This document shows, piece after piece, positions 13,488 through 47,454 of a stretch of DNA of 64,000 bases. The DNA is from Dromiciops gliroides. Taxonomy: Eukaryota. A program made the position numbers and the translations under genes. Numbering within the stretch: position 1 is the stretch's first letter; the number at the start of each line of letters is the position of its first letter. The notes below the pieces were generated by a model. It saw nothing but the letters and a program-made list of their open reading frames with translations. It was not told the origin of the DNA and did not search any database. The stretch covers positions 490,648,948-490,712,947 of the forward strand of contig NC_057863.1 in the NCBI RefSeq assembly GCF_019393635.1, read 5' to 3'.

Positions 13488-13499
13488 CCTCTTCTCTTC

Positions 13500-14570
13500 C
13501 TTTGAACTATGACACTGAAGTCAGTATAGGTAATGGAGTTGCCAAACCACATCTGGTCCTTTGCCCAGTGTGTTTGCACAGGGGTACTCTAATCTCTTTG
13601 TGACCAGTTGTCAGGTTCTCTTACTGTCTCTGACTTGAGAGCTCCCAAAGCTGTTGCTGTTTCTGTCACCACCACCTAATCCCACCACTGATGTTATATC
13701 CATCTTTGCTTTAAGCTAGCAGCCTCCCAGGTGTCACAGATCTCTCTTTTTGACCTCCTCCTATTTGCCTTGAACTTGCAGAATGTCTCACTCTGACCTT
13801 TTGGCTCTCCCACTTAAGAATTTGATTTGATTTGAGGTATTATTTTAAAGTTTGGAGGGGAATGTTGGGAGAGCTCAGCAGCGTGCTTTCTTTACTCTGC
13901 CATCTTGGCTACCCTCATAAGTCAGTAGGCTCCTAATAAGTGTTTGTTGAGTGATTCCACCTCCATTATTTGGTAACCTTTCCTCCTTAGGGGTTCACTT
14001 GATCTGTATCTGTTATCCAATCAAAATTCTAGTAGCCGTTTTCTACCAACTTCAAGGACACGTCCCTTCTTTTTTCAATGAGTTCAATGCTTGGCTTGGT
14101 CTTTCTCACTTCCTGCCCTCATAGTAGGGAGCTTCAACATATATTTTGACTCTCCCTCAAAAACTCTTTCTAGCCTTATTTTTTTTTCTTCTCCTTTCCC
14201 TACCCCACTGACTCTGCAATCCAGTAACACTGGTCTTGTATTCCTTGACACCTCACTTTTGCTGGCGGTACCCCACACCTTCCTCATCTCCACCTTCTGG
14301 CTTTAAGTTCCAGCTAAAATAACACCTTCTAAAGCAAGCTTTTTCTGATCCCCTCACCTCCCCCCCCCTTAATTCTAGTGCCTTCCCTTTATAAGTTATT
14401 TGTACATGGTTGTTTCTATGTTCTCTTCTCCATTAGATTATAAGCTCCTTGAGGGTAGAGGACTATCTTTTTCCTTTCTTTGTTTCTCTACACTTAGCAC
14501 CATGCCTGAAACATAATAGGGGCTTAGTAAAAGCTTATTGAATGACTAATCCTAAAGGAGTTGTCTAAAT
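13500..14570 (-). repeat. L2 3'-end relic
   Basis: Ends ...attagattataagctccttgagggtagagg...gcttattgaatgac, the MIR/L2 tail read in reverse. Confidence 0.45.
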
Positions 14571-15029: not shown

Positions 15030-15404
15030 TTTGTTAAGGGCTAAAATTCTAGCTAAACTGTCTAAACTATTTAATGAGTGGTTGCCAATAAATTATAAGC
15101 TTTAGCAAGAGTTAGACTTTTAAGCATTTATTAAGGAGAATAAGAATTTGGTAAAGAGAGAGAAAGGCCTACATTCATCTATCTATTAAAGGGAGAGAGC
15201 ATTTCTAGCTCCACTCTCCACCAGCGTCCTCAGGAAAGGAGAGTGAGACCGAGTGCCAGTCTCTTCCTTCTTCCTCCCACTAGCCCGCGTCACTTCCTGA
15301 CGCCAAAGAAAAGACTCCTGGTCTTGCCCTCAAAGACCTTCACTTCATGAACAGAACTCTTCTACAGTAAGTCTCCAGCAGGTGGCGTCATTCCAGTCGT
15401 TACA
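15030..15404 (-). mobile_element. Solo LTR of an ERV family (TG...CA ends, internal AATAAA), 4-bp TSD GATT
   Basis: Top strand reads TGTTAAGGGCTAAAATTCT...CAGTCGTTACA. Flanked by GATT at 15026-15029 and 15405-15408. Two more copies of the same ~370-bp unit are in the window. Confidence 0.7.
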
Positions 15405-16760: not shown

Positions 16761-17256
16761 ACAAAATTTTAGAGTAAAAAGGATCCTTATAGCTTATTTT
16801 GCAGTTGAAGAAACTGAGGCTAAATGAGAATAAATGACTTCTCCAAAGTCATACACAAACAGAGCTAAAATGAGACCCATGTAGACCCATGTATTAGACA
16901 CTGGTCTAATATACTTTTCCATATACTTTTTCATTACCTGATTCCTTGGTTAGGTTGCAGAGTTTATAGCCATGAATTAGAAATTCAGAAATAATCCAAA
17001 GGGAATGTATGTCTGCTTTGTGTGGTAACTTATCAACAACTGTAGCTCAGTTATTTAATATCCTAATTCTGGTTTCTTATGGATATCCGATATAACTGAA
17101 AATATTGCCATATTTAGGTAATGTTTGTCTCATGCTAGTTCTCTGATTTTGACAGTCCAGGTTGTCATTTAAAATTCCTTATTTATTTGACATTTGGATT
17201 ACTCTACTGTATGTTTATTCTAGGTGATAAGATATATTTGTATTTGATCAATTTAG

Positions 17257-17422
17257 AAAAGAGATTGCAGACTTTGAACAGCAGAAAGCAAAAGAATTGG
17301 CTCGAATTGAAGAGTTTAAAAAGGAGGAAATGCGAAAATTACAAAAAGAACGCAGAGTTTTTGAAAAATACACTACAGCTGCAAGAGCAATTCCAGATAG
17401 AAAGGAACGTGAAGAAATACAG
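17257..17422 (+). CDS. CENPJ: CENPJ exon ([55 protein letters not shown])
   Basis: Acceptor atttag|A and donor CAG|gtatga. Phase 2 to 0. Strong match to my recollection of the CENPJ coiled-coil. Confidence 0.85.
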
Positions 17423-17799
17423 GTATGAGAGCTCTTTGTAGTGAAAACATACAAATTATGCAGAATGATAGAAGTTGTACTGATAAACCAAGAATTAGAA
17501 AATGTCACTATTATATTGTTATGGATCATAGGATTAATTTCCTAATCTCAATAATTTTAACTGTTAAGTATTATGTCAGAATTCTAACTGGACATGCTTA
17601 ATGCAATTTGGCACTTATAAAAGTAATTAATAATTATCTCTAGCATTAACCAGCTAAATATAGTGTTCTACTATATAAAAACCAGAAGGATGCCAGAGCT
17701 TCAGAATAGATAGCATGCACATTGAAATTAGAATTGGTTCATTTGAGTCTGTCTCACTGTACAACTGTCATAAACCTGTAGCTCAGTTATTTAATATCT

Positions 17800-22052: not shown

Positions 22053-22423
22053 TGTTAAGGGCTAAAATTCTAGCTGGTCTGTCTAAAATATCTAATGAGT
22101 GGTTACCAATAAATTATAAGCTTTAGCAAGAGTTAGACTTTTAAGCATTTATTAAGAATAAGAATTTGGTAAAGAGAGAGAGAAAGGCCTACATTCATCT
22201 ATCTATTAAAGGGAGAGCACATTTCTAGCTCCACTCTCCACCAGAGTCCAAAGAAAAGAGCCCCAGTCAGAGCGCCAGGCTCCTCCCTTCTTCCTCCCAC
22301 ACACAGACGTCACTTCCTGACACCAAAGAAAAGACTCCTGGTCTTGCCCTCAAAGACCTTCACTTCATGGGGAGCTTTTCTACAGTAAGTCTCCAGCAGG
22401 TGGCGTCATTCCAATCGTTACAC
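22053..22423 (-). mobile_element. Solo LTR, same ERV family, 4-bp TSD CTGT
   Basis: TGTTAAGGGCTAAAATTCT...AATCGTTACA, flanked by CTGT at 22049-22052 and 22424-22427. Confidence 0.7.
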
Positions 22424-22729
22424 TGTCATTCTATATCACTATTGTTTGATGTTTAACATATACAGGGCTTTTTGGATTAGTTATTTTTGTATGTGTCTTC
22501 TCTCCCTACCTAGCTTACAAACACATGGCTGGTAGGTAACATTTGTCCTAAGCCTTTTTGTGTATACCCACAATACATAACAGTTGTTCTGTGGATGTAA
22601 ATAAATGCTCAGTCAGTTTATCTGAATGTCTGTCACTTGTGGATCTATTCATACTATATAGCCGCTTGATAATAGAAAATGTCGTTTGAGTTTATTGAGT
22701 ACTTCTGAATGCTTGCTTCCCTTTTGAAG

Positions 22730-22972
22730 GCTTTAAAACAACAAATAGCAGATTTACAGGAAGAGTTGAAGCGAAAAGAGACGAAGTGGTCAAATACACA
22801 TAGTCGCCTTAAAAGCCAGATAGAAACATTAGCTAAAGAGAACACAGACCTTCGTGAAGAGATAAAAATAATGGAACGGTTTCGACTTGAAGCCTGGAAA
22901 AAAGCAGAAGCTATTGAAAACAACTTAAAGAATGAACATCCCTTGATTTCTGTGAAAAAAGAAGAGTCTACA
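22730..22972 (+). CDS. CENPJ: CENPJ exon ([81 protein letters not shown])
   Basis: Acceptor ttttgaag|GCT and donor ACA|gtgagt. 81 codons, phase 0 to 0. Confidence 0.85.
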
Positions 22973-23161
22973 GTGAGTTTATAATTTTTTCTGATAATAT
23001 ATATTATTAGGAATTTAATCCAAATACAATAAAAGTTTTTAAAAACAGATTTTTATAATTGTTACAAACTTTGGAGTCCAACATTGCTAATTATAACCTG
23101 TAGTTAAAATTAAAGTACATTTTTGTGTTGAGCCTAATATACGATTAAAAAAATCAATTTA

Positions 23162-23320
23162 GGGGCAGCTAGGTGGCGCAGTGGATAGAGCACCGGCCCT
23201 GGAGTCAGGAGTACCTGAATTCAAATCCGGCCTCAGACACTTAACACTTACTAGCTGTGTGACCCTGGGCAAGTCACTTAACCCCAATTGCCTCACTTTA
23301 AAAACAAAACAAAACAAAAC
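23162..23320 (+). mobile_element. Mar1-like SINE with a 13-bp TSD
   Basis: TSD AAAAAAATCAATT. Tail (CAAAA)n. Confidence 0.9.
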
Positions 23321-23640: not shown

Positions 23641-23830
23641 CTTAAAGAGTATTTCCCTCTTTGAAAGTGGATTACTTATCTGGCTCTAATAGATCCTTTG
23701 GTAGGAATAAACACTTGATATTGACTTCTGAAAACAAACTGAAGAAAATTATTTTTGTCATAGATTGTTCACCATTAAAAAAATAAGTATTCTTTTTTAC
23801 TTAAAGTGTCCATATGTAATATAATTACAG

Positions 23831-23915
23831 AATCCATTGTTAGGCTTTCAGAAGAGTCAGAGCTTATCTTCAAATCAGACGGAAAAATACAAGAAAAATC
23901 ATTCACCAGTACAAG
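23831..23915 (+). CDS. CENPJ: CENPJ exon (NPLLGFQKSQSLSSNQTEKYKKNHSPVQ)
   Basis: Acceptor attacag|AATCC and donor CAAG|gtatga. Phase 0 to 1. Contains the KYKKN motif I recall in human CENPJ. Confidence 0.75.
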
Positions 23916-24270
23916 GTATGAAATTCTTTATGGGTAGGCCATACGTATACATGTATACTTACAGGAAACTTAGCAGAATCTTATCATGACCTGTTAGGTG
24001 TTCACCTATTAATAATCTATTTTATGAATTAAGTTCTCAAATGTTTTTGCAACATTGAAACTCTTCTCCTCCTTGTTTGAGTTTGGATACTTTTAATAAC
24101 AATAAAACCTGTCAGTCATAAAACATTTATTAAGTGATTAGATACTATGCTAAACCCCAAGGATATGAATAAAAACAAAATCATACTCCCTGTCCTCCAA
24201 GGAATTCACAGTATAATGGAGGAATGCATTGTGCAAATAACTATGTACATACAAGATATATTTTATACAT

Positions 24271-24279
<9 letters not shown>

Positions 24280-24315
<36 letters not shown>

Positions 24316-24359
24316 GTATGTATGTGTGTGGAAGTATTACCTTCCACTTACACTGTGTG

Positions 24360-24400
<41 letters not shown>

Positions 24401-24420
24401 GTGGAAGGTAATACTTAAAC
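24280..24420. repeat. (TA)n and (TG)n microsatellites enclosing a 22-bp perfect inverted repeat
   Basis: Arm 1 at 24332-24353 is aagtattaccttccacttacac. Arm 2 at 24395-24416 is gtgtaagtggaaggtaatactt. The 41-bp spacer is (TG)/(TA) repeat. Confidence 0.85.
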
Positions 24421-24582
24421 CCACATTTACAATTATTTATAAATTCTGTTAGTGTTCCCAGGTCTTTTTTCATTTCTTTAAAACTATTCTTTTTCTGCAT
24501 CTGTTTTCTTTACTTTAAACAAAATGTCATCTACTTTAAATAAATGTCATTATCTCCCTTTTAGTTAAATTTTCTGAAATGG

Positions 24583-24952
24583 TGTTAAGGGCTAAAATTC
24601 TAGCTAAACTGTCTAAAATATCTAATGAGTGGTCGCCAATAAATTATAAGCTTTAGCAAGAGTTAGACTTTTAAGCATTTATGAAGGAGAATAAGAATTT
24701 GGTAAAGAGAGAGAAAGGCCTAGATTCCTATCTATTAAAGGGAGGGCACATTTCTAGCTCCGCTCTCCACCAGAGTCCAAAGGAAAGAGAGTCAGACCGA
24801 GCGCCAGTCTCTTCCTTCCTCCTCCCACTAGCCAGCGTCACTTCCTGATGCCAAAGAAAAGACTCCTGGTCTTGCCCTCAAAGACCTTCGCTTCATGGGC
24901 GGAACTCTTCTACAGTAAGTCTCCAGCAGGTGGCGTCATTCCAATCGTTACA
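24583..24952 (-). mobile_element. Solo LTR, same ERV family, 4-bp TSD ATGG
   Basis: TGTTAAGGGCTAAAATTCT...AATCGTTACA, flanked by ATGG at 24579-24582 and 24953-24956. Confidence 0.7.
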
Positions 24953-25646
24953 ATGGTTTCTTGTTGCTTATTGGAAGTATACCACAAGACTGATTTAATA
25001 ATTAAAAAAAAATTCACTATCATTTTCATTTTCTACTTTACATAAGCTACTGGTTTTGGAAAACTGTTACTTTTTACTTCAAATTTTTTTGCTTAGAGAA
25101 TTTGAAAGCTTCATTTTAAATTTTGTTATCTTCTGTTGGTAAATAAATTTATAATTTTGCTGAAAGCATGGAACTGTTTTAACCATTTGGTAACACTGCA
25201 GGGAGATAACCCATATAATCACCATCTTGTTTTCTTTGGGAATTGGTGCTTGAGCTAGGTGTGTTTTTTTTCCCTGTTGTTTCTTCAATCTTCTTGATTT
25301 TGCCCAATTATCCACAGCAGAAATAGGTACAAAAAAGTTTTTATAGTTAATAAAACAAACACCCCTTCTTCCTCTCAACTTGACTGAGAATATAAATACT
25401 TTTCATTATGCCAATATAATTAACTGATTAAATACACACAATCATGATGCTTGATTTGAGTCAGATAGTTTAAGAAGCCAACTTTTTAGTAATGTGATAG
25501 TTCTCTGAATTTCTTAGATGGAGAAATGTATATGAACTACACAGACATAAAAAGCAGAAAGGTTGGCTGTGAGCTCCACTCAATACAGCCTAAAAAAGGC
25601 TCATCTTTGGTGTAAATATTCATTTTTTTTTCCATTAAGAAACAAT

Positions 25647-25767
25647 CGGGGCAGCTAGGTGACGCAGTGGATAAAGCACTGGCCCTGGATTCAGGAGTAC
25701 CTGAGTTCAAATCCGGCCTCAGACACTTACTAACCCCCATTGCCCTGCAAAAAAACAAAAACAAACA
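25647..25767 (+). mobile_element. Mar1-like SINE with an internal deletion
   Basis: CGGGGCAGCTAGGTGACGCAGTGGATAAAGCAC... with a (CAAAA)n tail. Confidence 0.8.
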
Positions 25768-25899
25768 ATCAATGAAATCAGAAGGAGGTTCAGGCATTCC
25801 AATTAATGAGTTGCCTGACTTGAACTTTAAATTGTTTAAAAAAAGATGGTTTATACATTTCATTGCTTACCTTAAAGTTTTGAAATCTCTTAAAGAAGA

Positions 25900-26175
25900 A
25901 TGGAGGCAGAGCTAGATGGTGTAGTGGTTAGAGAGCTGGGCCTAAAGTCAAGAAGACCTAACTTTAAATCTTCCCTTTTAGACTCTTTTTTGGGCTGCAT
26001 GACCCTGTGCAGTCACTTAACTGCTATCTGCCTCAGTTTCCTTATCTGCAAAATGGGGATAATAATAGCACCTACCTACCAGGGTTGTTGTGAGAATCAA
26101 GTGAGATAGTTGTACAACACTTTGCACAGTGCATGGCAACTAGTGAATGCTATATCACTGTTAGCTATTATTATT
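25900..26175 (+). repeat. Near full-length MIR
   Basis: …tagatggtgtagtggttagagagctgggcc…gcctcagtttccttatctgcaaaatggggataataatagcacctacctaccagggttgttgtgagaatcaagtgag…. Confidence 0.85.
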
Positions 26176-26181
26176 ATTATT

Positions 26182-26331
26182 GTTTTGTTTTTTTTAGTGA
26201 GGCAGTTGGGGTTAAGTGACTTGTCCAGGGTCACACAGCTAGTACGTGTTAAGTGTCTGAGGCCGGATTTGAACTCAGGTACTCCTGACTCCAGGGCTGG
26301 TGTTCTATCCACTGCGCCACCTAGCTGCCCT
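26182..26331 (-). mobile_element. Mar1-like SINE inserted into the (ATT)n tail of the MIR, with a 14-bp TSD
   Basis: TSD TATTATTATTATTG at 26168-26181 and 26333-26346. Confidence 0.9.
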
Positions 26332-26867
26332 CTATTATTATTATTGTGTAATTTATCAAATTCAGATTAAGGCCTAATGAAAGATTATCATCTTACTATG
26401 TTCTGCAACTATATCTGGAAATTTGTTTTCAGTTCCATATTTTAGGAAGGAAATTTATGAGCTATAGAGTATCTAGGGTACAGTGACTAGGATGGCAAAG
26501 GGCTATATGAAGATATGCCTTTAAATATTTGAAAGTCTCTCACTGGAAAAAGGATTAAATTTGTTCTGTTTGCCCCCAGCAGCAAAGAAAAAAACATATT
26601 CTTGAAGTAAGGAAAAACTTTATAACAATTAAACAATTTGTAACAATTTTTAACAATTCAATTTATAACATTCAAAAGTGAAGTGTACTCTCTTGGGAGA
26701 AAATGGTTTCTCCCTCATTGGAGGCCTTCAAGCAAAGGCTGTATGACCAATTGTCAGATAGGTTGTACCTTTTTAAAGTATGGATGGTTTGGACTATATG
26801 GCTGCCGAGGGCCCTGTAAGAAGGTTTTGCACCATAAAAAGAAGAGTAGCTGTATCTGCTTCATCTA

Positions 26868-27130
26868 GAGAGCCAGTGTGGCACAAAGTATCTAGTGCTG
26901 GAGTCAGCAAGACCTGGCTTCACATCTTGCCTCAGACATGTGTTAGCCATGAAGCGACTCGACTTCTTAATTTCCTTATTTGTAAAAAAGAGGATATCAG
27001 CAGCACTTACCTCCCAGGGTTTGTGGGGCTCAAATTAGGCAGTGGGTATCTAAAAGACTTTGCGAACCTCCAAAGGGTTATATAAATGTGAGCTGTTATT
27101 AGACATTGTTATAATCAAGATTCTGAAAGA
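26868..27130 (+). repeat. MIR-family CORE-SINE relic
   Basis: …ctagtgctggagtcagcaagacctgg…ttccttatttgtaaaa…ctcccagggtttgtggggctcaaattag…aaagggttatataaatgtgagc. Confidence 0.6.
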
Positions 27131-27574
27131 AATATTGCTAACAAATGGGCAGCTGCTAAAAACCTTATTATTTGCTAAGATTACTCAGTTAAGCTATAAG
27201 AAACCTAATATGTTTCCAGCTAAATATTCTGAGAGTACTAATGTGTATGTGAGAAAAAATGAAATGAAATTTTAAGTTTTGTTCTCTCCCCTTTTCCCCT
27301 AAAGACTTAGGAGGGAAACTTAGATTTTTATAACTGAAAAGTTTAAAAGATGATCCGCTTTGCATGTATTTTAGGTTTTTTCCCCCCCCAGACATAAACC
27401 ATCTTCTCCTTATATTTACTAGTTAACTAAATGGAAAATAAATCACAAATTAGGTGTGGAAGTCAGTAGTTGGTTCTTGTCCTTGTTCTTTGTGTATGGA
27501 TTGACAATTGTAGCTCATATTCCACTTAAAGACTTGAAAAGCACCCTTATTTAAGTTTAGCAACATTCATTGAA

Positions 27575-27900
27575 TAGACATTTATTCAGAACTTGCTGTG
27601 TGCAATGCACTAGGCTAGCTCCTCTGGGGAATACAGGGGAGAAAGACAGTCTCTGGCCTTATGGAGCTTATTGTCAAATTGGGGAGAAGAGAAACAAATG
27701 CAGGAGGGTTTTGGGAAAATCAGTGCATGATTTAGAGCAAGATGACAAGGGTTTGAATCTTAGATCTGATACCACTTCTGGGACCTAACACAAGGCTCTT
27801 TTACCACTTTACGCTTTAGTTTCTTATCTGTAAAATGATGGGATTTGAACTAAATGATCAACAAAGTCCCTTCCAGCACTAAAATTCTATGAACTTGGCC
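27575..27900 (+). repeat. L2/MIR 3'-end relic
   Basis: …ttatctgtaaaatgatgggatttgaactaaatgatcaacaaagtcccttccagcactaaaattctatga, the shared L2/MIR terminus. Confidence 0.6.
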
Positions 27901-29566
27901 CTAGCATAGCATATAAAAAACTAGAAAAACTTAAATAGAAAGTCACCATATCAGGTTTTTTTCATAGTCTTTTAAAGCCTGGAATAAATACTTCCTTTTT
28001 TGAAGTATGGGAGATTCCTATGACATTGCAGGAAAGGCAGGGAGAATGGTGTTAACAGCTAAGTTGTAAAAGAAGATCTGTTGCTTAAATGTTTTTGGAA
28101 AGAGCCTTAGTTATTCTTTAAATTGATTTCTAGGTCTCATTTGCTGTCGTCTGGATCTGGTTACAACTTGGGGTTCTCCATAACTAGATAAAATTAATAA
28201 ACTATTAATTTTTAAAAGTAAAATTGCTTAATTTATATGGAAACTCATGGCAGAAAAAAAATCAACAGCCATAGAGAGGAGTGTTAAGTAGGGAACCACA
28301 AAACAATTACAAAAAGCACTAGTGCTCGTCATAAATCTGGTTTAGACATTGTGAAGCTAAATGGTGGCTAACTCCACCCCTCTGCCCATGGTTGTATTTA
28401 AGCAGGGTTAACTATCCCATTGTGGTACCTTTGTTTTCCAAGTAGTTTTATTGTCTTCAGTGATATATGCTTCCATAAGATGTTTATGAAATTTATGTAA
28501 GCTATCTATCATCCCAACAACTTTTCTGCTTTGTTACCCAAAGGTAATTTTTAAGAAGGAATTTTTGCCAGTTTTCTAAATTAGATGTTGATGTTCTGAC
28601 AATTGAATCACTGTCACATACTTGTATTATATAAGTAAGTTTGTTGTTGGCCACTTCTCTGGGCCTCAGTTTCTTCAGCTTAAAATAAGGGTTTTAGATG
28701 TTGTGATCTCTGAGGTCCATTTCAGCTCTAAGTCTATGATTGTCAGATGCCAAAGTTTTAAAGATGCTTAAGCCAAATATGTCTCACTATTGAGACAAAA
28801 AAGTTAATTTTAAGATTTAAAAAATGAGTACATGGTGGGGCGGAGCCAAGATGGCGGAGGAAAGACATTAAACCCACAGGGCTCCTGATACAATCACTGC
28901 AAAAATAGCAATAAAAGAACCCTTGGGGCAGAAAAACACACAAAAATACGGGCTGAGAGTTTTCTCCAGCTATAGATAGATTTCAGGGGGCTGTGCTGGA
29001 CCACGAATAAAGCCTAAACCTGCAATCGGGCCAACACACCAGACACCCGCCAGAGGAATTTGCCCCAGTGCCTCTGAATCGGCTGCAGCACTGGCATCTT
29101 CTGGAATTGAGCCCGCGGTTGGGCTGAACGGCTGACCCGGGGGGCAGGGGGTAAGTGCAGGGGTACCAGTGGACTGGGGAAGGATTCGACTGTCCCACCC
29201 CAGCGGGCAACCAGGAAGAAATCCTGAGCGGCTGAAGGCCCAGGTGGGGGAGGGGAGCAGGCAGGCTCATTAGAAGCTAAGAACCACACCACAGAAAGCT
29301 TTGCTGGTTGGTTGCTTAGGAAGTAGGTCTGAGGTTATCTCTGGACCTGAGAACAGGCCAGGTGAGATTAAAACCTGCCCCCCCCCCCAACCCAAAACAC
29401 CTGGGAACAGAAACAGAGCCGAGAAGCAGCCCTACCCTCCAGTAGAGAGTTTAAAATCAAATGAAAGCAAGGCCAGGCAGGCTGAGAACCCCCCCCCCCC
29501 CCAACGCTGTAGCTTGAACAGTGTGTCTTTAAGAAGGAGTTAAAAACCAAGAAATAGTAAGCCAGG

Positions 29567-30501
29567 ATGAGTAGGCAGAGAAAGCAGAAGACCATCAAAA
29601 ACTTCTTTGGGGGAAAGGTAGACAATACAACCTCAGAAGAAGAAGATAATAACAGGGTCAAAGCTCCAACATCCAAAGCTTCCAAGAAAAATATGAACTG
29701 GTCTCAGGCCATGGAAGCTCTCAAAAGGGACTTTGAAGAGAAAGTAGGAGAAACAGAAAGAAGATGTAGAGAAAGGGAGGAAAGAATGGAAAGGGAAATG
29801 AGAGCAATGCAGGAGAGTCATGAGAAAAAAGTCAACAGTTTGAAAAGCCAAATGGAAAAGGAGATTAAAAAACTGATGAAAATAACTGCCTAAGAATTAG
29901 GATTGAACAAATGGAAGCTAGTGACCTTATGAGAAACCAAGATACAGTAAAGCAAATCCAAATGAATGAAAAAATAGAGGGCAATGTGAAGTATCTCCTT
30001 GGAAAAACAGCTGACCTAGAAAATAAATCTAGGAGAGACAATTTGAAAATCACTGGACTACCTGAAAACCATGACCAAAACAAAAGCTTAGACACCATCC
30101 TCCAAGAGATTGTGAGGGAAAATTGCCCTGATATTCTAGAAGCAGAAGCTAAAATAGAAATTGAAAGAATCCACCAATCACCTCCTGAAAGAGATCCCAA
30201 AAGGAAAACCTCCAGGAATATTATAGCCAAATTCCAGAACTCCCAGGTCAAGGAGAAAATACTGCAAGCAGCTAGAAAAAAGGAATTCAAATACTGTGGA
30301 TCTCCAATAAGGATAAAGCAAGATCTAGCAGCTTCTACATTAAAGGATCAGAGGGCATGGAATATGATATTCCAGAGGGCAAAGGAACTGGGACTACAAC
30401 CAAAAATCATGTCCCCAGCAAAACTGAGTATAATCTTTCAAAGGCAAAAATGGGATTTCAATGACAGAGGTCTTTCAAGCATTTGTGATGAAAAGACCTG
30501 A
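29567..30501 (+). pseudogene. L1 ORF1p remnant (coiled-coil + RRM + CTD) disrupted by a frameshifting indel
   Basis: Supplied ORFs 29567-29893 and 29911-30501 read ...RRDNLKITGLPE...IAKFQNSQVKEKILQAARKK..., typical L1 ORF1p. They are in different frames. Confidence 0.8.
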
Positions 30502-31163
30502 ACTGAATAGAAAATTTGACTTTCAAATACAAGACCCTGGAGAAGCATAAAAAGGTAAACAGGAAAAAAACTTCATGAGGGATATTAAAAGATCAAACTG
30601 TTTACATTCCTACATGGGAAGATAATACTTCAAAATCATAAGAACTATCTCAGTAAGAAATTCACAGAAGATAGGTCTGAACTGAATATGAAGGGATAAT
30701 ATCTGTAAAGCATTTATGTTTTGTTCTTTGTAGGGCAGACAGGGTGGGGTGTCTTATGTCTAGGGCTGGATTTGGGCTTAGGGCCTGCTGGGTCCAGGGC
30801 TGGTACTATGTCCACTGTGCCACCTAACTAATCCACGATGACATCATTAAAATAGGGTTGAGGGGTAGGAGGAACAAACTGGGGGAGGGAGAAGGGGAGA
30901 GATGGTCTGGGGAGAGGTAGTTCACGTGAAGGAAACAAGAAAAAAGCTTATGGAGGAGAGTAGAAGAGGGGGAAGGAGTTGGGGAGTGAGTGAACCTTAA
31001 TATCATCAGAATTGGCTCAAAGAAGGACTAACATACATACTCAAGTAGGTATAGTAATATATTTTTGCCCTGGGTAGGGGGAAGGAGAAAAGGGGAGGGG
31101 GGAAAGAAGGGAAGGAGGAAAGGGCAGATCGGGAGAGAGAGCAGTAAAAAGCAGAACACTTTT

Positions 31164-31310
31164 TTTTTTTTTTGGTGAGGCAATTGGGGTTAAGTGACTT
31201 GCCCAGGGTCACACAGCTAGTAAGTGTTAAGTGTCTGAGGCCGGATTTGAACTCAGGTCCTCCTGACTTCAGGACTGGTGCTCTATCCACTGCGCCACCT
31301 AGCTGCCCCC
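31164..31310 (-). mobile_element. Mar1-like SINE inserted into HAL1-like copy 1, with a 16-bp TSD
   Basis: TSD AAAGCAGAACACTTTT at 31148-31163 and 31311-31326. Absent from copy 2. Confidence 0.9.
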
Positions 31311-31560
31311 AAAGCAGAACACTTTTAAGGAAGATGTTGTTCTGCATTAACTCACCAGTATGACATATTGAATTGCTTGATCTCATAGGGAGGGTGGAGG
31401 AGGGAGGGAGGAAGAAAGAAAAATTTAGAACACAGAATTAGCTCAGGGACTCTGATCTCACTGGAGTGGGCTCAGGGAGGGAATAGCTTTCATACCCAAT
31501 TGGGAGGAGTAATCTATTTAACCCTGCAGGGGGAAGTAGGAGGGGAAGAGGATAAGGAAG

Positions 31561-31915
31561 TGTAATGATTGGAATGATGCCACCTGCTGGAGACTTACTG
31601 CAGAAGAGCTCCACCCATGAGGTGAAGGTCTTTGAGGGCAAGACCATGCATCTTTTCTTGGCGACAGGAAGTGATGTTTGCTTGTGGGAGGAAGAAGGGG
31701 GAGCCTGGTGCTCTGACTCGGGCGCTTTTTTCCTGTGGACTCTGGTGGAGAGCAGAGTGAGAAATGCGCTCTCCCTTTAATAGATAGATGAATATAGGCC
31801 TTTCTTTCTCTCTTTACCAAATTCTTATTCTCCTTAATAAATGCTTAAAAGTCTAACTCTTGCTAAAGCTTATAATTTATTGGCGACCACTCATTAGAAA
31901 TTGTAGACAGTTTAG
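31561..31915 (+). mobile_element. Fourth copy of the ERV solo-LTR family, opposite orientation, 3' end truncated or divergent, nested in HAL1-like copy 1
   Basis: Starts TGTAATGATTGGAATGATGCCACCTGCTGGAGACTTACTG, the reverse complement of the other three LTRs. Absent from copy 2. Confidence 0.6.
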
Positions 31916-32728
31916 CTAGAAAACAGAAGGAAGGGTGAAAAAAGGGAGTGCAGAGCGAGGGAGAGGATAGTCAGAAGTCTGAGGAGGAATAGGTAAAAAG
32001 AAGATAGAGTAAACGTCATGGGAAGGGGAAATAGTTATGATGATTGATTATAATGGAAAAACGTACGGTACCTACTTTGCTGGGCTTTTATGAAGAAAAT
32101 TTTCTGTCAAGCTTAAGGTACTGTATACAGGTTATAATGAACAGGATACTATCAGAAAAACCTGGAAAGACCTACATGAACTGAAGCAGAGTGAAATGTA
32201 CTATATACAAAATAACAGCAATAGTTTAAGATGATCTGCTGGGAAGCATGTGGTTATTTTCAGCAAGATAATGATCCAATATAACCCTGAAGGACTTATG
32301 AAGATTGCAGCCCATCTGCAGAGAAAGAACTGATAGTATCTGAAAACAGATGAAAACACATTAAAAAAAATCTTTTTTCTTTTCCTCTTTGACAATTCCT
32401 TAATCTGAAGTTTTGTTTTTTTTGACTGTTTTCTCTCATAACTAGCTAATATGGGAATTTTTCCATGACTACTCATGTATAACTTATTTTGAATTGGTTG
32501 CATTCTTGTGGGTGGGGGGGTGGGGATGGAGGGGCAGAAGAAGTTGGAACACAAAGTTTTAAAAAAATTGATGTTAAAATTTTGTTTTTACATATATTTT
32601 GGAAAATAAAATTCTATTCTAAAAAAAAGTACATGTATCTGATATGAGCCTATTTTAATTGAAAGGAGACTTTTAAATGTTACCAACTTTATTTTTAATG
32701 TAACTTTTTTTTTTTTTGGTAAAAACAG

Positions 32729-32793
32729 GAAATCTGCCTCGGAGACCAAAATCAGCACCTATTCATGATCTCAGTAATTCAGATAAAGGACAG
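32729..32793 (+). CDS. CENPJ: CENPJ exon (GNLPRRPKSAPIHDLSNSDKGQ)
   Basis: Acceptor aaaaacag|GA and donor GGACAG|gtgaat. Phase 1 to 0. Confidence 0.8.
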
Positions 32794-33439
32794 GTGAATT
32801 TCATAGTAGCTTAATGTTTTAATGCATGTAGATATAAATTAATTGGTGTTGGAATTAATCCCCTTACCTATCTGCCTTGAAAATAAAAAAAAAATAGTGG
32901 CTAAAGAGATAAATGATTAGGTGGATAAGTGAATAAAGGGTTCAGCTGAGGCTTTAAAAAATTTATCTTTAATCAAGCATTTTTTTGAGTTCTTAATACG
33001 TTCCAAGTACTGTCCTAAGCACTGAAGCAAAGCAAGGCAAAAACACAAAAATGGTCCCTGCCTATAAGGAGCTTACATCATAACGTGGAGGGTACCATAG
33101 AAATAAATGCCTACATACACTAAATATAGAGCAGAAGGAAGGTAATCTTAGAGAGTGGAAGGCTTTGGTGATGGAGTTGACTAAAAAAAGCCTCCTTGAA
33201 AAGCTGCCTGTTGAGCTGAGCCTTGAGAGAAGCCAGCAATGTCAAGAGGTAGAGATGAGGAGGTTGAGTGCATTGTAAGCACAACCAGAGTTGGGAGATG
33301 GAGTGCCATATTTGAGGAACATCAAGCCAGTATTGCTAGACTGTTGAGTGTGGGGATAGGAGTAGGGAAAGTCACTGGAAAGGTAGGAAGGGGTCAGGTT
33401 ATGAAGAGCCTTAAATGCCAAAAGAGAGTACTTTAAATT

Positions 33440-35372: not shown

Positions 35373-35474
35373 TTCATACCCAGTGAAATATCTGAACCAC
35401 TGACATGCCCTGTTCCTGATTCTAAAGTACAAGAAGAAGAAATTCATGGAGAAATTAGTCATCCCGATGGAAAG
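35373..35474 (+). CDS. CENPJ: CENPJ exon (FIPSEISEPLTCPVPDSKVQEEEIHGEISHPDGK)
   Basis: Acceptor tttttttttatag|TTC and donor GGAAAG|gtaaga. Contains the GEISHPDGK motif that precedes the G-box. Confidence 0.85.
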
Positions 35475-36656
35475 GTAAGATTTTATGAAAACTATGATTT
35501 TCTTAAAAGTCTGAATCCCTGTCCATCTGCTGAAGAAAAGTGAGGGCTAATTACCATATTTATTTCTATCATCTCTCCTGCTATAATTGTCAGCAATAGC
35601 TCATTAAAGATTTGAGGAAAGAAAGAGTAGAGGTATCTCTGAGAATAAAGAATTAAGTGCTATGCACAGCTCTAACTCTTCTTAATGAAAACTGAAAAAG
35701 ATTCTTGGTGATGGTAAAAACAATGTTATTGCAACTTAAGAGGTGTAATTTATCAAATTAGAGGTCTAGTCTTCCATCCAAATCAGGAATACTATCTATC
35801 TATAATATCTCTAATAAGTAATCATATAACCTCTTAGCCTTCAGGATAGGAAGTTTAACACTTAATAAGGTTCCCCACCCCCAACTTATGTTTCAAAGCT
35901 CCTTTAACTTTTATGTATTTGTTCTAATTCTGTTGTAGCTATCTAGAATAAGTCTACTCCTCTCTCACCTTTTATAAAACAACACTTAAAACATTTTAAG
36001 ACATGTATAAACCTAAGATGAGGTATCAGAGTATGAGTTTATATGATATTCTACCTGAATTCATAATATGGTAGGTTCTACACTGGGAAAACTTTGAGTG
36101 TGGTCTTGGCAAAACAAACTACTTTCTGAAGACATGGAGCAGCTCAGCACCAGTAGGTTGGCCAGTTGGTTATATAATTCTTTGGTCCTAGCCCTCCACA
36201 AAACAAATACAAAATGGCCTTTAGTCCTTTGTAAATCCCTTCTGCTTCTGCATTGATGGTGTGGGAACAGGGGACTGAGGGTGCTAATCAGAAAACATTT
36301 ATTAAGCACCTACTATGTGCCAAGCTCTCTGCTGGCTCTGGGAATTTGAAGAAAAATGTAACAGTCCCTATCCTCTTAGGATCTTAGAAGTTGGCACTCC
36401 TTTATATGAAATCCTTTTTCTAATGACTAACAGCCAAGCATGACTAATGGAGAAACTGAACTGTATCAATCTTGACATTCTTTACAACAAAGCAGAAAAA
36501 AGGAAGTTGCAGTGAAGTAGAAGAATGGCTGATTAATTTTTCTTACAGTGATGGCACAGTTGGTTTTATCCTGTACCCAAAGAACAAGGAAGACCATTGC
36601 TTCAAATATCTGATTATCTTGTATGGCAATGCTTATTCCTAGTATCAGAAGAAAGA

Positions 36657-36786: not shown

Positions 36787-39248
36787 AGAAGAAAGAATGC
36801 CATAAAGAAATTGTGATGTATTTATACCATTGTCTGTTCCAGATGATGAAATGGTAGAGAAATAATACAAAAACTCAGAGCCTCCAAATTTAATCAATAT
36901 ATTTTGTGATTTCAATTCCAAGACAAGGAATAGCTAGAAGGAAGAAAAGTAATATAGCTCTAGAAAATCTCTGGTTTATTCTGTGTTTTGATCAAAGCCT
37001 TACACAGAGTAAGGTCCTGTGCTGACATTTCATAAACATTTTTTTTTCAAGAGAAGAACTGCTGCATGAAGAACATAATCACCACATATCACAAAAAATT
37101 AAATTAATTTCATTTTAACAGACAGGATATGACATTTTCATTGCTGATACAGCTGTGTACAGCTCAGAACACTAAATAAAATTCATGTTAGCTCTAGAAG
37201 AATAGAAATGGGGGGAGAAGTCATGCAATTGAAATAACTCAATCCTGACCAAGTCAGTCAATTTTTGGATGATAAAAAATTAATAATGGAAGGATGAAAC
37301 TTTAGTAATTTCACACAGATGTGTTACTGATAGAGATACAAAGACACCAAATGAGCCTCAAATGCCTTTATTAGCAAACAGTTAACTTACTTTCCAGACT
37401 GAGAGGAATATTACCTTGTTTTGTAAAGTTTTAAGAAGAATGGTAGAAGATTGAGTATTACTGAGTAGAAAGAAACAGTAGAATCAGTAAGAGATCCTAC
37501 TAAGGAAAGTCATCTAAGGGTGAAATTAGAATAGTGTAAAGGTAAAAAAAAGAGCTGCAAACGTTTTTATATCAAGCTTTCCTCACCATCAAGAATGGCA
37601 AAGTGACAGCTGGATTAGCGCTAACATACAACAAGGAGATGTGCTGAAGATGACAAATGGGGATTGATTCATAAGATGTAACTAAGATGATGAAGATTCT
37701 GAAGGCATGAAAAAGTTCTCAGATCTCATTCGACAGCTCAAATCCCACCTTCTGCATAAGGCCTTTTCTGATCCTTCCCCCTACCTTCCTTTTGAGATTG
37801 CCTCTTAATTTATGCTGTGTATATCTTGTATATACACAGTTGTTTCCATGTTGTCTCCCTCAGGAGAAATAAGAATTTCTTGAGGACAGGGGCTGTCTTT
37901 TTGCCTTTGTATCCTTAGCATAGTGGCACATAGGAAAGGCTTAAATATTTGACTATCTGACTTTGTTAATATTAGAAAAAAAATCACATCTTGATTACAC
38001 AACTAAAAAATGAATGATTGTGGATTTTAAAAGAAAATTGATTTAGTAGAGCAAAAATGCCAACTTAAAAGGTCCCTTCCAAAAAGTTGTATTTTGTTCA
38101 TACATAAAATTATTAATGATTCCTCAAAACATATAACAAATGAGAGAACACTGTTTAATTCTTTAATTGTCAATATCAGAAAAACATAAAAGATATATGC
38201 TTGCTACAGACATGCACCACTGTGATGGAAAACCAGCAAAGACTCAAATTTTGAAGGACTTCCTTTGGATGGGAAGGTCCCCCAGATGCCGATTTGTAGA
38301 TTAAGGTTGTGTGATTGCATCAAACCTTGGACCATAACAGTGCCTTCTGAAAGAGAACCATAATCATTCAAGTATTTGGGCTAACTATATACCCAAGAAA
38401 CACAAAGTGAAGAGGTTTTCCTCCTAGCTTTTGACATAGTTGGATGGATAACCTAAAGAATTTATGTTCTACCATGAATTATTGAGAATTACAGAATAAA
38501 TATTGATCAGTGAGTTTAGCCCATGATTAAAAAGGGGAAGAAACCAGAGGTGGGAAAAAGTGTATAGCTTTTCTAATGAGGATCCTCTGTAAATTTTAAC
38601 CATGTTTTAGTACAAAACACTAAAATCTCTTAAGACTTAAAAAAATGAGGTCTCACATAGAGAACAATGAAGTACATAATGGGTGTTAGCATACTAAAAA
38701 TGTCTTCAAATTAGAGTAAATGAAAGATATGTTGTCCATATTAAAAGCAAATTCATATAACAAATAGATGTTCACTTCAAGAAATAAAGTTTCCTCGCCT
38801 ATGTTGTTCCCCAATATATTTCTCTTCCCTAACCCTCCCAGAGTGCCACTCTTTCCTTATAGGAACAACAAAACAAAAAACCACTGTTTTTCCAAACTAT
38901 AATCCATTGGAAGTGTAAGTTTATATGCAATGTTTCACAGTTGTAGTTCCATGCCTTTTAAAATATTTTATCTTAGTCTAAGCTTGGTCATTGTAATTTC
39001 ATTGCATTCATTTAAAAAATTTTTTTTTCTGGTTTTGCTTACTGTACTTTGCATCAGTTCCTGAGGTTGCCTCAATTATAATCATTCTGCTTCTACCAGT
39101 TTGAAAATTATCTTTGATCTTGTATCCCCTCCAACCTAATTCTCTCTTCTTTCCAATCTTAACTAAAATTATGTGAATAAAAATTGACTTCCATAAGCAG
39201 AGAAAGACATCCTTTTACTTAAACATATTTTTAAGATGAAGTGCTTAT

Positions 39249-39958
39249 TGTGCATACCCTTTGACCCAGCAATACCACTATTAGATCTTTTTCCTAAAGA
39301 GATTATAAAAAAGGGAAAAGGACCCACATGTACAAAATTATTTATAGCTGCTCTTTTTGTGGTGGCAAGGAATTGGAAATTGAGGGGTTGCCCATCAATT
39401 GGGGAATGGCTGAACAATTTGTGGTATATGAATGTAATGGAATACTATTGTGCTGTAAGAAATTATGAGCAGGCAGATTTCAGAGAAACCTGAAGGACTT
39501 GCATGAACTGATGATTAGTGAGATGAGCAGAACCAGGAGAACATTGTACACAGTATCAACAACATTGTGTTGATCAACTGTGATAGACTTTATTCTTCTC
39601 AGCAATACAATGGTCCAAGATAATTCCAAAGGACTCATGATGGAAAATGCTTTCCAAATCCAGAAAAAAAAGAACTATTGAATCTGGATGCAGATGGAAC
39701 CATACTATTTCTATTTTTTGTTGTTTTTCTTTTGAGATTTCTCCTTTTTGCTCTGATTCTTCTCTCATAACATAACAAATGCAGAAATATGTTTAATATG
39801 ATTGTACATATATAAACTATATCAGATTACTTGCTGTGTTGGGGAGGAAGGGAGAAAAATTTGAAACTAGAAATCTTATAAAAACAAATGTTGAAAACTA
39901 TCTCTAAATGTAACTGGAAAATAATAAAATATTTTATGGAAAAAAAAAGATGAAGTGC
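39249..39958 (+). mobile_element. 5'-truncated L1 (ORF2 C-terminus plus 3'UTR plus polyA) with a 15-bp TSD, intronic
   Basis: Supplied ORF 39236-39493 is the L1 ORF2 C-terminus (...FIAALFVVARNWKLRGCPSIGEWLNNLWYMNVMEYYCAVRN). A10 tail. TSD AGATGAAGTGCTTAT at 39234-39248 and 39959-39973. Confidence 0.85.
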
Positions 39959-41138: not shown

Positions 41139-41279
41139 GTTGAAAAAGTTTTAAAAAGTGGGTGCCATGTTATTTTATTTCCAAATGGAACTCGGAAAGA
41201 AGTGAGTTCAGATGGAAAAACTATCATCATTACTTTTTTCAATGGGGACGTGAAAAAAGTCATGCCAGATGAAAGAGTG
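41139..41279 (+). CDS. CENPJ: CENPJ G-box/TCP10 C-terminal domain exon ([47 protein letters not shown])
   Basis: Acceptor ttgtttag|GTTG and donor GAGTG|gtatgt. 47 codons. Confidence 0.9.
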
Positions 41280-41413
41280 GTATGTTTCCATAGATGTTTT
41301 CTATCTCTTTATATGTAATACATACACACACCTCATATAGATGTTTGTGTAGATGTATATGTTTTTATATCTGTGTGCATACACAGACCCCACACACAGT
41401 ACTAGCAAAATAA

Positions 41414-41575
<162 letters not shown>

Positions 41576-41672
41576 TAATTCAAGTTCATGTTATACTTTA
41601 TATAGATACTATACTATATATACACACTATGTATGTGTATATTTATATGTGTGTATATATTTTTTTCACCAG

Positions 41673-41793
41673 AAAAGCATTTTCCAGATGGAAGAAAAGA
41701 AATTACATTTCCTGACCAGTCCATTAAAAATTTATTTGAAGACGGGAGAGAAGAGAGCATTTTCCCAGATGGTACCATTGTTCGAGTACAACA
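41673..41793 (+). CDS. CENPJ: CENPJ G-box exon ([40 protein letters not shown])
   Basis: Acceptor ttttttcaccag|AAAAG and donor CAACA|gtaaga. Phase 1 to 2. Contains the repeated FPDG motifs of the G-box. Confidence 0.85.
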
Positions 41794-42833
41794 GTAAGAC
41801 TTGCTTAAATCCAGTAGTAGTTTTAAATAATATACTCTGGCTTTTCTTATACACAATTTCATTCCCGTCCCATCTACAACAGATTTGTAAATCTATTTTC
41901 TGTGTGTCAGATGTTGACTGGGTTAAGATATATTGCAAATATCAGACAGCACCTTTACCCTAACAGACTTAGAGCTAGCTGACAGTCTAATTGAAAAAAA
42001 CTACATATATATCATATCCCATGATCCAAATAAATTTTCTGTGTAACAGTGCACAAAAGCATCATATGACTGTAGAAGGCAATGATAAACTCCTATCACT
42101 GCTTCCGGATAATACTGTCATTTAGTCAGATATTAGATAAGGGAGGCTTAAAGGTAGGTAAGTCAGCCTAGGAAGAGGAGGTTTGTATGTATGACAGGAT
42201 GACCTAACAGTTGGCATGATTAGAATCTGATGTGATAAATGATAGGCATTATTGTAGTTTTATAGTAGGTATAGACTAGGTAGATACAGAAATGTCATGA
42301 AGATCATGGTAGGTGCATGTGGTAATAATGAAAGTGTGAGATTAGAAGAGAGGTCTGGACAGAGATGATCAAAACTGAAAGGTCAGTTCCTACAGTTAAA
42401 AAAAAAATTATTAAGTAGGTGTGGGAAATAAAGGGCACAGCCATTTTAAGGCTTGAGCCTAGTAAAACCAGGGAGCTTGTGAAGGAGATATGGTAAATAA
42501 GCTTAGTTTAACATTTTGAATTTCAGCAGGGCATCAAGCACAGAGGCAAAAGGAGCTTTGTAACATTAGGGGTAGAGCTGAATATTAGGAAATTATCCAC
42601 ACCTTGTAATTCAAACAGTGAAGATAGATGCATGCAAGGTTTGTAAAGGGAAGAGAGGGCTGAATCTTGGCCTGGTTATTTGAGGGGGCAGGGGAATGGG
42701 AGGCAACCATCCACTGAAGACAAAGATGGAGAAGAAAAATTGAGAGCTAACACTGTTATTGGTTTGAGGTAGCAGCAGCTTCTATGTAACAGGAAGAGAA
42801 GTGTTACTAAATTCACAATTTTTTTTTAAACAG

Positions 42834-43026
42834 AGATGGCAACAAAATAATAGAATTTAACAATGGCCAAAGAGAACTTCATACTCCCCAGTTTAAGAGA
42901 CGAGAATATCCAGATGGCACCATTAAGACTGTATATTCCAATGGCCACCAAGAAACAAAGTATATCTCTGGTCGAGTAAGAATTAAAGATAAGGATGGTA
43001 ATGTTCTGATGGACACCAAGTTGTAG
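42834..43026 (+). CDS. CENPJ: CENPJ terminal coding exon ([64 protein letters not shown]), stop TAG at 43024-43026
   Basis: Acceptor tttaaacag|AGATGG. Open to the stop codon. Phase agrees with the previous exon. Confidence 0.9.
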
Positions 43027-44391: not shown

Positions 44392-44873
44392 GTGAAGCCA
44401 GGGCCTTTCATCATGGATGCCTATTCCAGTGCCCTTCATGCAATAGGCATTAAAATGCTTATTGGATTAGATTTCTACTACATCACTCCACACTTTAGAG
44501 GAACCATTTTCAAACACAGAGAAAAGATAAGTCAGGGGTAGAAAATCTAAATGGCAAGCCTGAGAAGGGCTACTAGGGATAGAAAACTCCCAGTCGAAGA
44601 CACTCCCTTCTTGCCCAGGCAGGTTGGCACTAAACTATAGCCTTAGGAAAGATGTTTCGAATAACACTGAGAGGTTACATGACTTTCCCCGTGTCAAAGC
44701 CACTCGTCAGAGGAACTTGAATCTGGTTCTAGCAAAGTACTTAAGAATCTTGCTCTTTATCCTGTTTTATTAATACCTTGAATGACAGAGTATTTCCAAC
44801 AGAGGACAATCTTTTTGTGATGGGACCACAAACCATGTCATACTAGTATTAAAATAATTAGATAAAAGTTTTA

Positions 44874-45020
44874 GGGGCAGCTAGATGGTGCAGTGGATAG
44901 AGCACTGGCCCTGGAGTCAGGAGTACCTGAGTTCAAATCCGGCCTCAGACACTTAACACTTACTAGCTGTGTGACCCTGGGCAAGTCACTTAACCCCAAT
45001 TGCCTCACTAAAAAAAAAAA
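44874..45020 (+). mobile_element. Mar1-like SINE with a 10-bp TSD
   Basis: TSD AAAAGTTTTA. A10 tail. Confidence 0.9.
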
Positions 45021-46914: not shown

Positions 46915-47454
46915 CTAAAATATAAGTAAAATTTTTCAAACAAGTTCACCAAGTTCACCCCTTCCTCTTTATTCTATCCTAAGCTATTCAGTATGTACAC
47001 AATGGACTTGACCCATTTTTATCAATTTCCATTCTTTAAACACTCAAGCTAAATCCTGCCTCACTCACAAAGCCTTTTTGGACAGAATCAACACTGATGC
47101 CATCATTCTGTATGTATGTTACTATAAGACTATAAGTAATGCCTTATGTGATAATCTCTATGTGTATACTTATATGTGTGTATAAATGACATATATACAT
47201 ACATATAAGTGTACATGTATAAATATTCATATACATTTATATCCAGATACCCGATTTAAATTATCTTTGAAAAGCTCTATCCTTAACAAGCCTATTTTGT
47301 ACTCCAGAGGAAGTCACAGCTCTCACATACACAGTGGAAACAAACACTTGCTGAACATTAGGTTTAAAGCAAACCAGTTTCCCCCTGCCATATCTCCTAA
47401 ATTTTATGTTTCAGAGGAACTAAGGAACATTTACTTTAAAAGCAGAGGGGCAGG

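Follow-up and report, generated by a model that had tools for sequence, protein, structure and literature searches.

Three fossil insertions of a probable HAL1 lineage, an L1 derivative without ORF2, in and around CENPJ of Dromiciops gliroides

A stretch of 64,000 nucleotides from the genome of Dromiciops gliroides (contig NC_057863.1, positions 490,648,948 to 490,712,947; hereafter the window) contains three insertions that are, very probably, fossils of a marsupial HAL1 lineage, that is, of a derivative of the long interspersed element (LINE) L1 from which the second open reading frame (ORF2) was removed by internal deletion. Copy 1 (28835-32628, plus strand) lies in sense orientation within an intron of CENPJ, copy 2 (51417-54072, plus strand) lies downstream of that gene, and a third, 5′-truncated copy occupies 11073-12161 on the minus strand. 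The HAL1 (half-L1) families are attributed to Smit (1999) and to Bao and Jurka (2010). According to published accounts, HAL1 families encode only the ORF1 protein (ORF1p), have several origins and need the ORF2 protein (ORF2p) in trans; their lineages are multi-copy and kept the coding capacity of ORF1 over long periods. A preliminary description of the window, drawn from the letters alone, had proposed a HAL1-like non-autonomous family from copies 1 and 2 and had overlooked the third copy, which brings the total of HAL1-family copies in the window to three. We find the proposal supported by L1 termini, an ORF1, the lack of both an endonuclease (EN) and a reverse transcriptase (RT), target-site duplications (TSDs) and a deletion junction held in common.

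Copies 1 and 2 both have a full-length 5′ end with a YY1-box terminus, an ORF1, an A-rich tail and a TSD; their features lie on the plus strand unless another strand is given. The left TSD of copy 1, aaaaaatgagtacatg (28819-28834), is preceded by ttt, in an L1 EN-like TT|AAAA target. It is matched by the right TSD, aaaaaaaagtacatg (32621-32635), the A-rich part of which is shared with the tail and the unambiguous part of which is gtacatg (32629-32635). Copy 2 is framed by acaaatatgccttct (51402-51416) and acaaataggccttct (54073-54087), which match at 14 of 15 bases. The TSD scores of copies 1 and 2 were equalled by 0.2% and 0.55%, respectively, of random segment pairs from the window. With its own TSD of 15-16 bp around it, each copy transposed as a unit, as had been claimed, and the second ORF2-less copy, originally placed at 51415-54074, is upheld with a 15-bp TSD and slightly different borders.

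The 5′ untranslated region (UTR) of copy 1 (28835-29566) has a GC content of 54% and an observed/expected (o/e) CpG ratio of 0.30. It carries an L1-type terminal YY1 box, GGCGGAGCCAAGATGGCGG (28839-28857), in which the YY1-box motif GGAGCCAAGATGG is exact at 28842-28854. Copy 2 has this motif at 51425-51437 with two mismatches, and both copies begin with the L1-type terminus GG(C/T)GGAGCCAAGAT. The segment 28980-29300 of copy 1, previously called CpG-rich, is enriched relative to the whole window (CpG o/e 0.38 against 0.13, at a GC content of 60%), but it is no CpG island. Two runs of 11 and 17 C (29379-29390 and 29487-29503), about 100 bp apart in the same 5′UTR, suggest a short internal duplication and have no counterpart in copy 2.

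ORF1 of copy 1 (29567-30550) corresponds to an L1 ORF1p with an RNA-recognition motif (RRM) and a C-terminal domain (CTD). It has two frameshifts (~29865 and ~30465) and no in-frame stop. After repair of the frame, it matched the Pfam families Transposase_22 (8e-14) and Tnp_22_dsRBD (2e-8), the latter being a dsRBD-like CTD; its best database matches are marsupial L1 ORF1p sequences, with those of wombat and wallaby closest. In copy 2, a 5′UTR (51417-52063) leads into a decayed ORF1 (~52064-53023), in which eight or more stops add to several frameshifts. The earlier portrayal of ORF1 as frameshifted in copy 1 and heavily mutated in copy 2 is thus correct, as is the verdict that both copies are dead, ORF1 being disabled in each.

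An ORF1p search led us to loci in the genomes of wallaby, bilby and dunnart. The wallaby locus L003 contains a full-length L1 in which 565 bp of spacer separate ORF1 (8001-9182) from ORF2 (9748-13602); the latter encodes an ORF2p of 1300 amino acids (aa). The L1 3′ end was represented within the window by an ordinary 5′-truncated L1 (39236-39948, plus strand; TSD agatgaagtgcttat), which comprises the ORF2 C-terminus and 3′UTR and has 82% aa identity to wallaby ORF2p. A tblastn search with wallaby ORF2p gave no match in copies 1, 2 and 3 at E<=1e-3, and a relaxed search of the three copies gave only a C-terminal stub of 20 aa, in copy 1. Elsewhere in the window the same protein matched ordinary L1 debris, for example at 39248-39570 (82% identity).

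Past ORF1, the DNA can be aligned with the spacer between ORF1 and ORF2 and with the ORF2 start of the wallaby L1 in L003 and of a dunnart L1 (L005), and the last ~500 bp of the copies are colinear with the ORF2 end and 3′UTR of the in-window reference. In every copy examined, the spacer runs into the ORF2 ATG and ~15-22 codons, after which the sequence jumps to the ORF2 end or the 3′UTR. Because the spacer and the ORF2 stubs are colinear with L1 and the body of ORF2 is gone, the elements are L1s from which ORF2 has been cut out, and this is what defines a HAL1. What had been described as about 1 kb of L1 3′ region comprises, besides the L1 3′UTR, the complete inter-ORF spacer and stubs of the ORF2 start and end. 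The ORF1-ORF2 spacer of the dunnart L1 keeps the motif cttactctcatcag..ggctcaaagag of all HAL1 copies. This dunnart element (8639-13448 of L005, Sminthopsis crassicaudata) is a full-length L1 that has a 5′-truncated L1 nested at ORF2 codon ~241, and the nested element covers ORF2 aa 1116-1294 and the 3′ end.

In copy 1, the inter-ORF spacer (30551-31334) is homologous by sensitive blastn to positions 9183-9715 of L003 and to the dunnart L1 spacer, and is split by an antisense module and a nested short interspersed element (SINE), both described below. The spacer is followed by an extra internal block, made up of a segment X and the start of a segment Y′ (31335-31560) and, beyond a nested long terminal repeat (LTR), the rest of Y′ (31930-32017), which ends at the ORF2 ATG. 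X is like the 3′-terminal region and Y′ repeats the distal part of the inter-ORF spacer; the block also holds a 14-bp patch, and X has no tail in either copy 1 or the third copy. The block looks like the outcome of RT template jumping that became fixed in a master copy. The ORF2 start stub (32018-32062) consists of the ATG and ~15 codons and ends at the junction (~32062/32063). Past the junction (32063-32628) lie 85 bp of uncertain homology, an ORF2 C-terminal stub and the L1 3′UTR. The C-terminal stub, NEQDTIRKTWKDLHELKQSE (32134-32196), which was picked up by the relaxed tblastn search, corresponds to ~aa 1258-1277 of wallaby ORF2p; a polyadenylation (polyA) signal, AATAAA, stands at 32605, and positions 32621-32628 form the A tail. 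The 85-bp segment, which copy 1 and the third copy both have, gave no significant alignment to ORF2 (z about 0), and its assignment to ORF2 aa ~1183-1195 was withdrawn as non-significant. A reading of copy 1 as two adjacent insertions was also rejected, since the internal boundary (31327-31340) has no A tail or TSD and one TSD surrounds the whole.

The ORF2 stub of copy 2 comprises an ATG at 53689 and ~20 codons up to the junction (~53748), which is followed by the 3′UTR and the A-rich tail. Copies 1 and 2 align at 80% identity over 29544-31163 and 52044-53651, an interval covering ORF1, the module and 330 bp beyond, and their ORF1s are 86% identical. Between the 5′UTRs, only ~200 of 730 bp can be aligned, patchily and at 62-75% identity. 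Copy 2 lacks a ~300-bp block of copy 1 (31335-31560 plus 31930-32017) as well as the 85 bp at the junction. The common architecture ascribed to the two copies is present, with the qualifications that their 5′UTRs barely align and that copy 1 has the extra block.

The third copy is flanked by the TSD agaatgagtgagtc (12162-12175 and 11059-11072), contains a nested SINE of its own (11139-11287) and sits in an older L1 ORF2 fragment (tblastn matches at 10245-13058, minus strand). An old ORF2 fragment of the window, used as a protein query, retrieved only two short EN fragments from Sarcophilus. The X-Y′ block of the third copy (12161-~11870, minus strand) is also present in copy 1, and the junctions of the two copies are the same base for base (gattataatggaaaaacgtacggtacctactttgctggg). 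The junction of copy 2 reads gtaactgtgaaagaaatgattagcagaatgctatcag. A junction common to the copies, which the preliminary description had put forward as a check, was thus found in identical form in copy 1 and the third copy, while in copy 2 the 5′ edge is the same and the 3′ edge different.

Copies 1 and 2 have in common a probable short SINE in antisense orientation, located on the minus strand at 30705-30835 (TSD 30694-30704 and 30836-30846) and at 53195-53317 (TSD 53185-53194 and 53318-53327). The TSD of ~10 bp, ggat(a/g)atatct / (c/a)gatga(ca)tc(a/t), lies at the same site in both. In the module, GTAAAGCATTTAT..TTTGT represents an A-rich tail in antisense; it is followed by a tRNA-like head, likewise antisense, which shares 73-83% identity with the head of a SINE abundant in the window; the joint between spacer and module is gatgatatctgtaaagcatttat. 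In the alignment, the spacers of wallaby L1 and HAL1 represent the empty site. ARAGORN called no tRNA in copy 1, and an Rfam scan of the whole window gave no match. The module was correctly recognised in the preliminary description as built into the element: it is the same insertion, at the same site and with the same TSD, in both copies, and it is built in because it inserted before copies 1 and 2 diverged.

Two later insertions into copy 1 provide a relative chronology; both had been recognised before, the SINE together with its TSD, and we confirm them. One is a SINE in antisense orientation, from the family abundant in the window (31164-31310, minus strand; 16-bp TSD aaagcagaacactttt at 31147-31163 and 31311-31326). 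The other is a solo LTR of an endogenous retrovirus (ERV) at 31561-31925, with TG..CA termini, an AATAAA at 31836 and the TSD GAAG at 31557-31560 and 31926-31929.

The comparison of junctions was extended to eight ORF2-less copies, three from the window, four from wallaby and one from bilby. The four wallaby elements (one in L001, two in L002 and one in L003) are TSD-flanked; that at 7328-10070 of L001 has the TSD aaaatgaagggga and an intact ORF1 of 362 aa. The bilby element (in L004) has an intact ORF1 of 370 aa and a 16-bp TSD, and the wallaby and bilby units measure ~2.7-3.2 kb between clean TSDs. All eight copies, from three species, have their 5′ deletion edge at ORF2 codon ~15-22. In each of the three marsupial lineages the spacer of ~500-600 bp is whole, and the 3′ edge ranges from the ORF2 C-terminus to deep within the 3′UTR. 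The YY1-box motif is found at the 5′ ends of the wallaby HAL1 copies and, as the one-base variant gcagagccaagatggcg, in bilby. Target sites read ttt|aaaaaa, tta|acaaat and tttt|aaaa.

Further peculiarities of these relatives were observed. Wallaby HAL1 copies have duplicated 3′-terminal blocks. The bilby HAL1 element carries three antisense SINE-like blocks (9590-9710, 9930-10060 and 10110-10250 of L004), the sites of which differ from that of the window module. NCBI annotates the HAL1 ORF1s at 8001-9089 of L001 (Notamacropus eugenii) and 8001-9113 of L004 (Macrotis lagotis) as 'uncharacterized protein', and the wallaby protein record from L001 stands for 20 member sequences. The wallaby and bilby HAL1s with gene-annotated ORF1s are probably recently active families.

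In ORF1 nucleotide identity, the window and wallaby HAL1s form a cluster at 78-82%, against 70-71% to the wallaby L1; the ORF1 of the bilby ORF2-less element is as distant as that of the wallaby L1. The dN/dS ratio (nonsynonymous to synonymous substitution rates) of ORF1 between copy 1 and wallaby HAL1 is 0.26. This value was obtained despite the neutral decay of copy 1 since its insertion and indicates that ORF1p was under purifying selection in the ORF2-less lineage. Selection on ORF1p has also been inferred in published work on a guinea-pig HAL1, in parallel to the window/wallaby result. Among the ORF1p homologues was a protein of 345 aa with Transposase_22 and a dsRBD-like CTD, labelled as a hypothetical protein of a Bacteroidales bacterium metagenome-assembled genome and located on a 2.5-kb contig. 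This record most likely reflects contamination of the metagenome bin with host (mammalian) DNA.

These data suggest how the lineage may have arisen and spread. The founding deletion would have removed ORF2 between codon ~20 and its last 40-70 codons; what the elements keep is the L1 5′UTR promoter region with its YY1 box, ORF1, the entire inter-ORF spacer, the ORF2 start, the 3′UTR and the polyA signal. A master copy would then have been transcribed from its own 5′UTR, for which we infer promoter activity, and its RNA would have been coated in cis by its own ORF1p. The resulting ribonucleoprotein (RNP) may have borrowed ORF2p from autonomous L1s for a TT|AAAA-like nick and target-primed reverse transcription (TPRT), a putative trans-mobilisation that would yield copies, full-length or 5′-truncated, that end in an A tail and have TSDs of 14-16 bp. 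TPRT by a borrowed ORF2p would agree with the targets, which are TT|AAAA-like, with the lengths of the TSDs, with the A tails and with the fact that the third copy is truncated at its 5′ end. A short SINE would have entered the spacer of the master in antisense orientation before the subfamilies represented by copies 1 and 2 separated, and would then have been co-amplified. After insertion, the three window copies decayed, and copy 1 subsequently gained a SINE and an ERV, the latter leaving a solo LTR.

The gene that harbours copy 1 lies on the plus strand of the window. An ORF of 559 aa (3269-4948) matches the Pfam CPAP tubulin-binding region, and its homologues in a protein search carry the name centromere protein J. 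No marsupial CENPJ orthologue was among the matches of the search with the CENPJ exon protein, though the gene is confirmed. Using tblastn with eutherian CENPJ, we mapped exons, all on the plus strand, at 3428-4882, 5844-5978, 17240-17425, 22724-22927, 23825-23917, 32728-32796, 35379-35492, 41139-41321, 41435-41794 and 42826-43023; the last of these extends to the protein end. Copy 1 is bracketed by the exons at 23825-23917 and 32728-32796 and therefore lies, as stated previously, in sense within the CENPJ intron 23917-32728, where its tail is 99 bp from the next exon. The polyA signals reported earlier in the orientation of the host gene amount to 12 sense-strand AATAAA/ATTAAA hexamers in copy 1. 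Because the CENPJ exons downstream of it are conserved, copy 1 is evidently tolerated. Copy 2 lies ~8.4 kb past the last CENPJ coding exon, and an ORF scan of 43100-64000 for a gene neighbouring it found nothing resembling an exon.

The families of the two elements nested in copy 1 recur in the window. The solo LTR has four copies with 87-88% identity and TG..CA termini, each with a different 4-bp TSD: 31561-31925 (plus strand, GAAG), 22068-22424 (minus, ACAG), 24598-24952 (minus, CCAT) and 15047-15404 (minus, AATC). Four solo LTRs of the same family inside 17 kb of CENPJ introns form an unusually dense local cluster. The nested SINE belongs to a tRNA-derived marsupial family with ~35 copies on both strands of the 64 kb, at 72-95% identity to the nested one, for example at 10079-10228, 23158-23309, 44870-45020 and 47453-47602.

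Several points weigh against the assignment of the three copies to one HAL1 lineage founded by an internal deletion. The junctions of copies 1 and 2 are non-identical, the deletion in copy 2 being 85 bp larger on the 3′ side, and the 3′ deletion edges of the wallaby and bilby elements lie further downstream, inside the 3′UTR; given these differences, a single deletion origin is parsimonious, but not proven. The 5′UTRs of copies 1 and 2 are mostly unalignable, which assigns these copies to different subfamilies, and copy 1 has the odd X-Y′ block. The sample from the source genome comprises the three copies of the 64-kb window, and the marsupial HAL1 entries of the libraries (Repbase/Dfam) entered the comparison by name. 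The putative trans-mobilisation by L1 ORF2p rests on established L1 biology.

Alternatives were considered for the structure of copy 1 and for the loss of ORF2. Copy 1 might be a chimera that arose when, during one round of TPRT, the RT started on a short RNA like that of the third copy (X-Y′, ORF2 stubs and 3′UTR) and then jumped to a copy-2-like HAL1 RNA at the spacer end. The third copy does start ~12 bp upstream of the spacer/X joint of copy 1, there is microhomology (ttt.aagga/gaagat) at the joint, and one outer TSD encloses all of copy 1. However, the third copy already has ~12 bp of spacer end before X, so that the joint must be older and have been present in its source; a pre-existing joint points to a spacer-X-Y′ master and ordinary 5′ truncation. 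Duplicated 3′-terminal blocks likewise occur in the wallaby HAL1s. We consider such a chimera improbable, and copy 1 would be a HAL1-family insertion under either reading.

It is similarly doubtful that ORF2 was removed as an intron, with a spliced L1 mRNA being retrotransposed and founding the lineage, in the manner of the spliced integrated retrotransposed L1 elements (SpIREs). SpIREs, reportedly described by Larson et al. in 2018, are said to be L1 copies that miss an internal segment at defined breakpoints inherited from the RNA, and those known are said to be mostly without 5′UTR/ORF1 segments and dead on arrival. The window lineage, in contrast, is without ORF2 and yet kept amplifying, and GT..AG at its breakpoints is weakly suggested. 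Read against the wallaby and dunnart L1s, the junction of copy 2 falls within 1 nt of a donor-like aat|GTGAAT (or GTAAAT) at codon ~19 joined to ..ataAG|aaatga at codon ~1254. This fit is nevertheless one base off, the putative acceptor has no pyrimidine tract, and by our estimate GT and AG would occur near arbitrary breakpoints by chance in ~5-10% of cases. Furthermore, the copy 1 junction maps uncleanly, and the ~20% divergence of the copies blurs the breakpoints.

That the copies were ordinary full-length L1 insertions, each of which lost ORF2 later by an independent local deletion, is very improbable. The 85-bp offset between the 3′ sides of the copy 1 and copy 2 junctions would fit such a history, and deletion between short repeats such as ATGAAC is plausible. 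Against it, an identical junction and an identical internal block occur in two separate insertions, copy 1 and the third copy, and a single 5′ edge recurs in all eight ORF2-less copies. The wallaby and bilby units moreover combine intact ORF1s with clean TSDs, and the ORF1s of ORF2-less copies group together. Finally, copy 1 is oriented in sense, with the next exon 99 bp downstream, and has 12 sense-strand hexamers and a perfect YY1 box; it is nevertheless scarcely credible that it has a host function, as an L1TD1-like domesticated or exonised ORF1 or as an alternative exon or terminator of CENPJ, given the two frameshifts in ORF1, the SINE and LTR inserted into the copy, the TSD that frames it and the conservation of the downstream CENPJ exons up to the last.

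The HAL1 assignment thus remains the preferred one, and the kind of element is already known: marsupial HAL1s are catalogued in the RepeatMasker/Repbase libraries. Published RepeatMasker outputs name HAL1-2a_MD and HAL1N1_MD (Monodelphis) and HAL1-3A_ME (Macropus), and HAL1 elements have been screened for in the RepeatMasker output of opossum, wallaby and Tasmanian devil. HAL1s have an L1 5′UTR, ORF1 only, no ORF2, an L1 3′ end, a polyA tail and TSDs, and the window copies do not differ from them in kind. Details seen among the window copies are a full inter-ORF spacer with the ORF2 start, a built-in antisense module, probably a SINE, and the X-Y′ block, features that the catalogued consensus sequences may or may not share.

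Outside the L1 clade, HeT-A (Jockey clade) and Ag-Sponge (CR1 clade) are likewise LINEs with internal deletions that keep a gag-like ORF1 and the termini and need an autonomous partner. They differ in belonging to other LINE clades and hosts, and nothing similar to the telomeric role of HeT-A is indicated for the window copies. L1TD1 resembles the latter in its ORF1p-derived RRM and CTD domains; it is, however, a host gene that exists in a single copy and whose ORF is intact, whereas the window copies are multi-copy, TSD-flanked and disabled.

A wider proposal is that a single ORF1-only lineage, with a selected ORF1, is older than the split between the window species and the macropods, and that the spacer and ORF2 start were kept for a role in cis. 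We think this unlikely. If it were true, the spacer and ORF2 start might act in cis, for example by positioning the ribosome or RNP to capture L1 ORF2p, and the founding deletion might have been a splicing event.

The biological payoff of the three insertions themselves is small, as they are dead repeats of a catalogued kind that any repeat annotation would mask. Their analysis does, however, clarify the anatomy of marsupial HAL1s, in which the inter-ORF spacer and stubs of ORF2 are retained, and it draws attention to the intact HAL1 ORF1s of the wallaby and bilby assemblies, which enter annotation as 'uncharacterized protein' genes.

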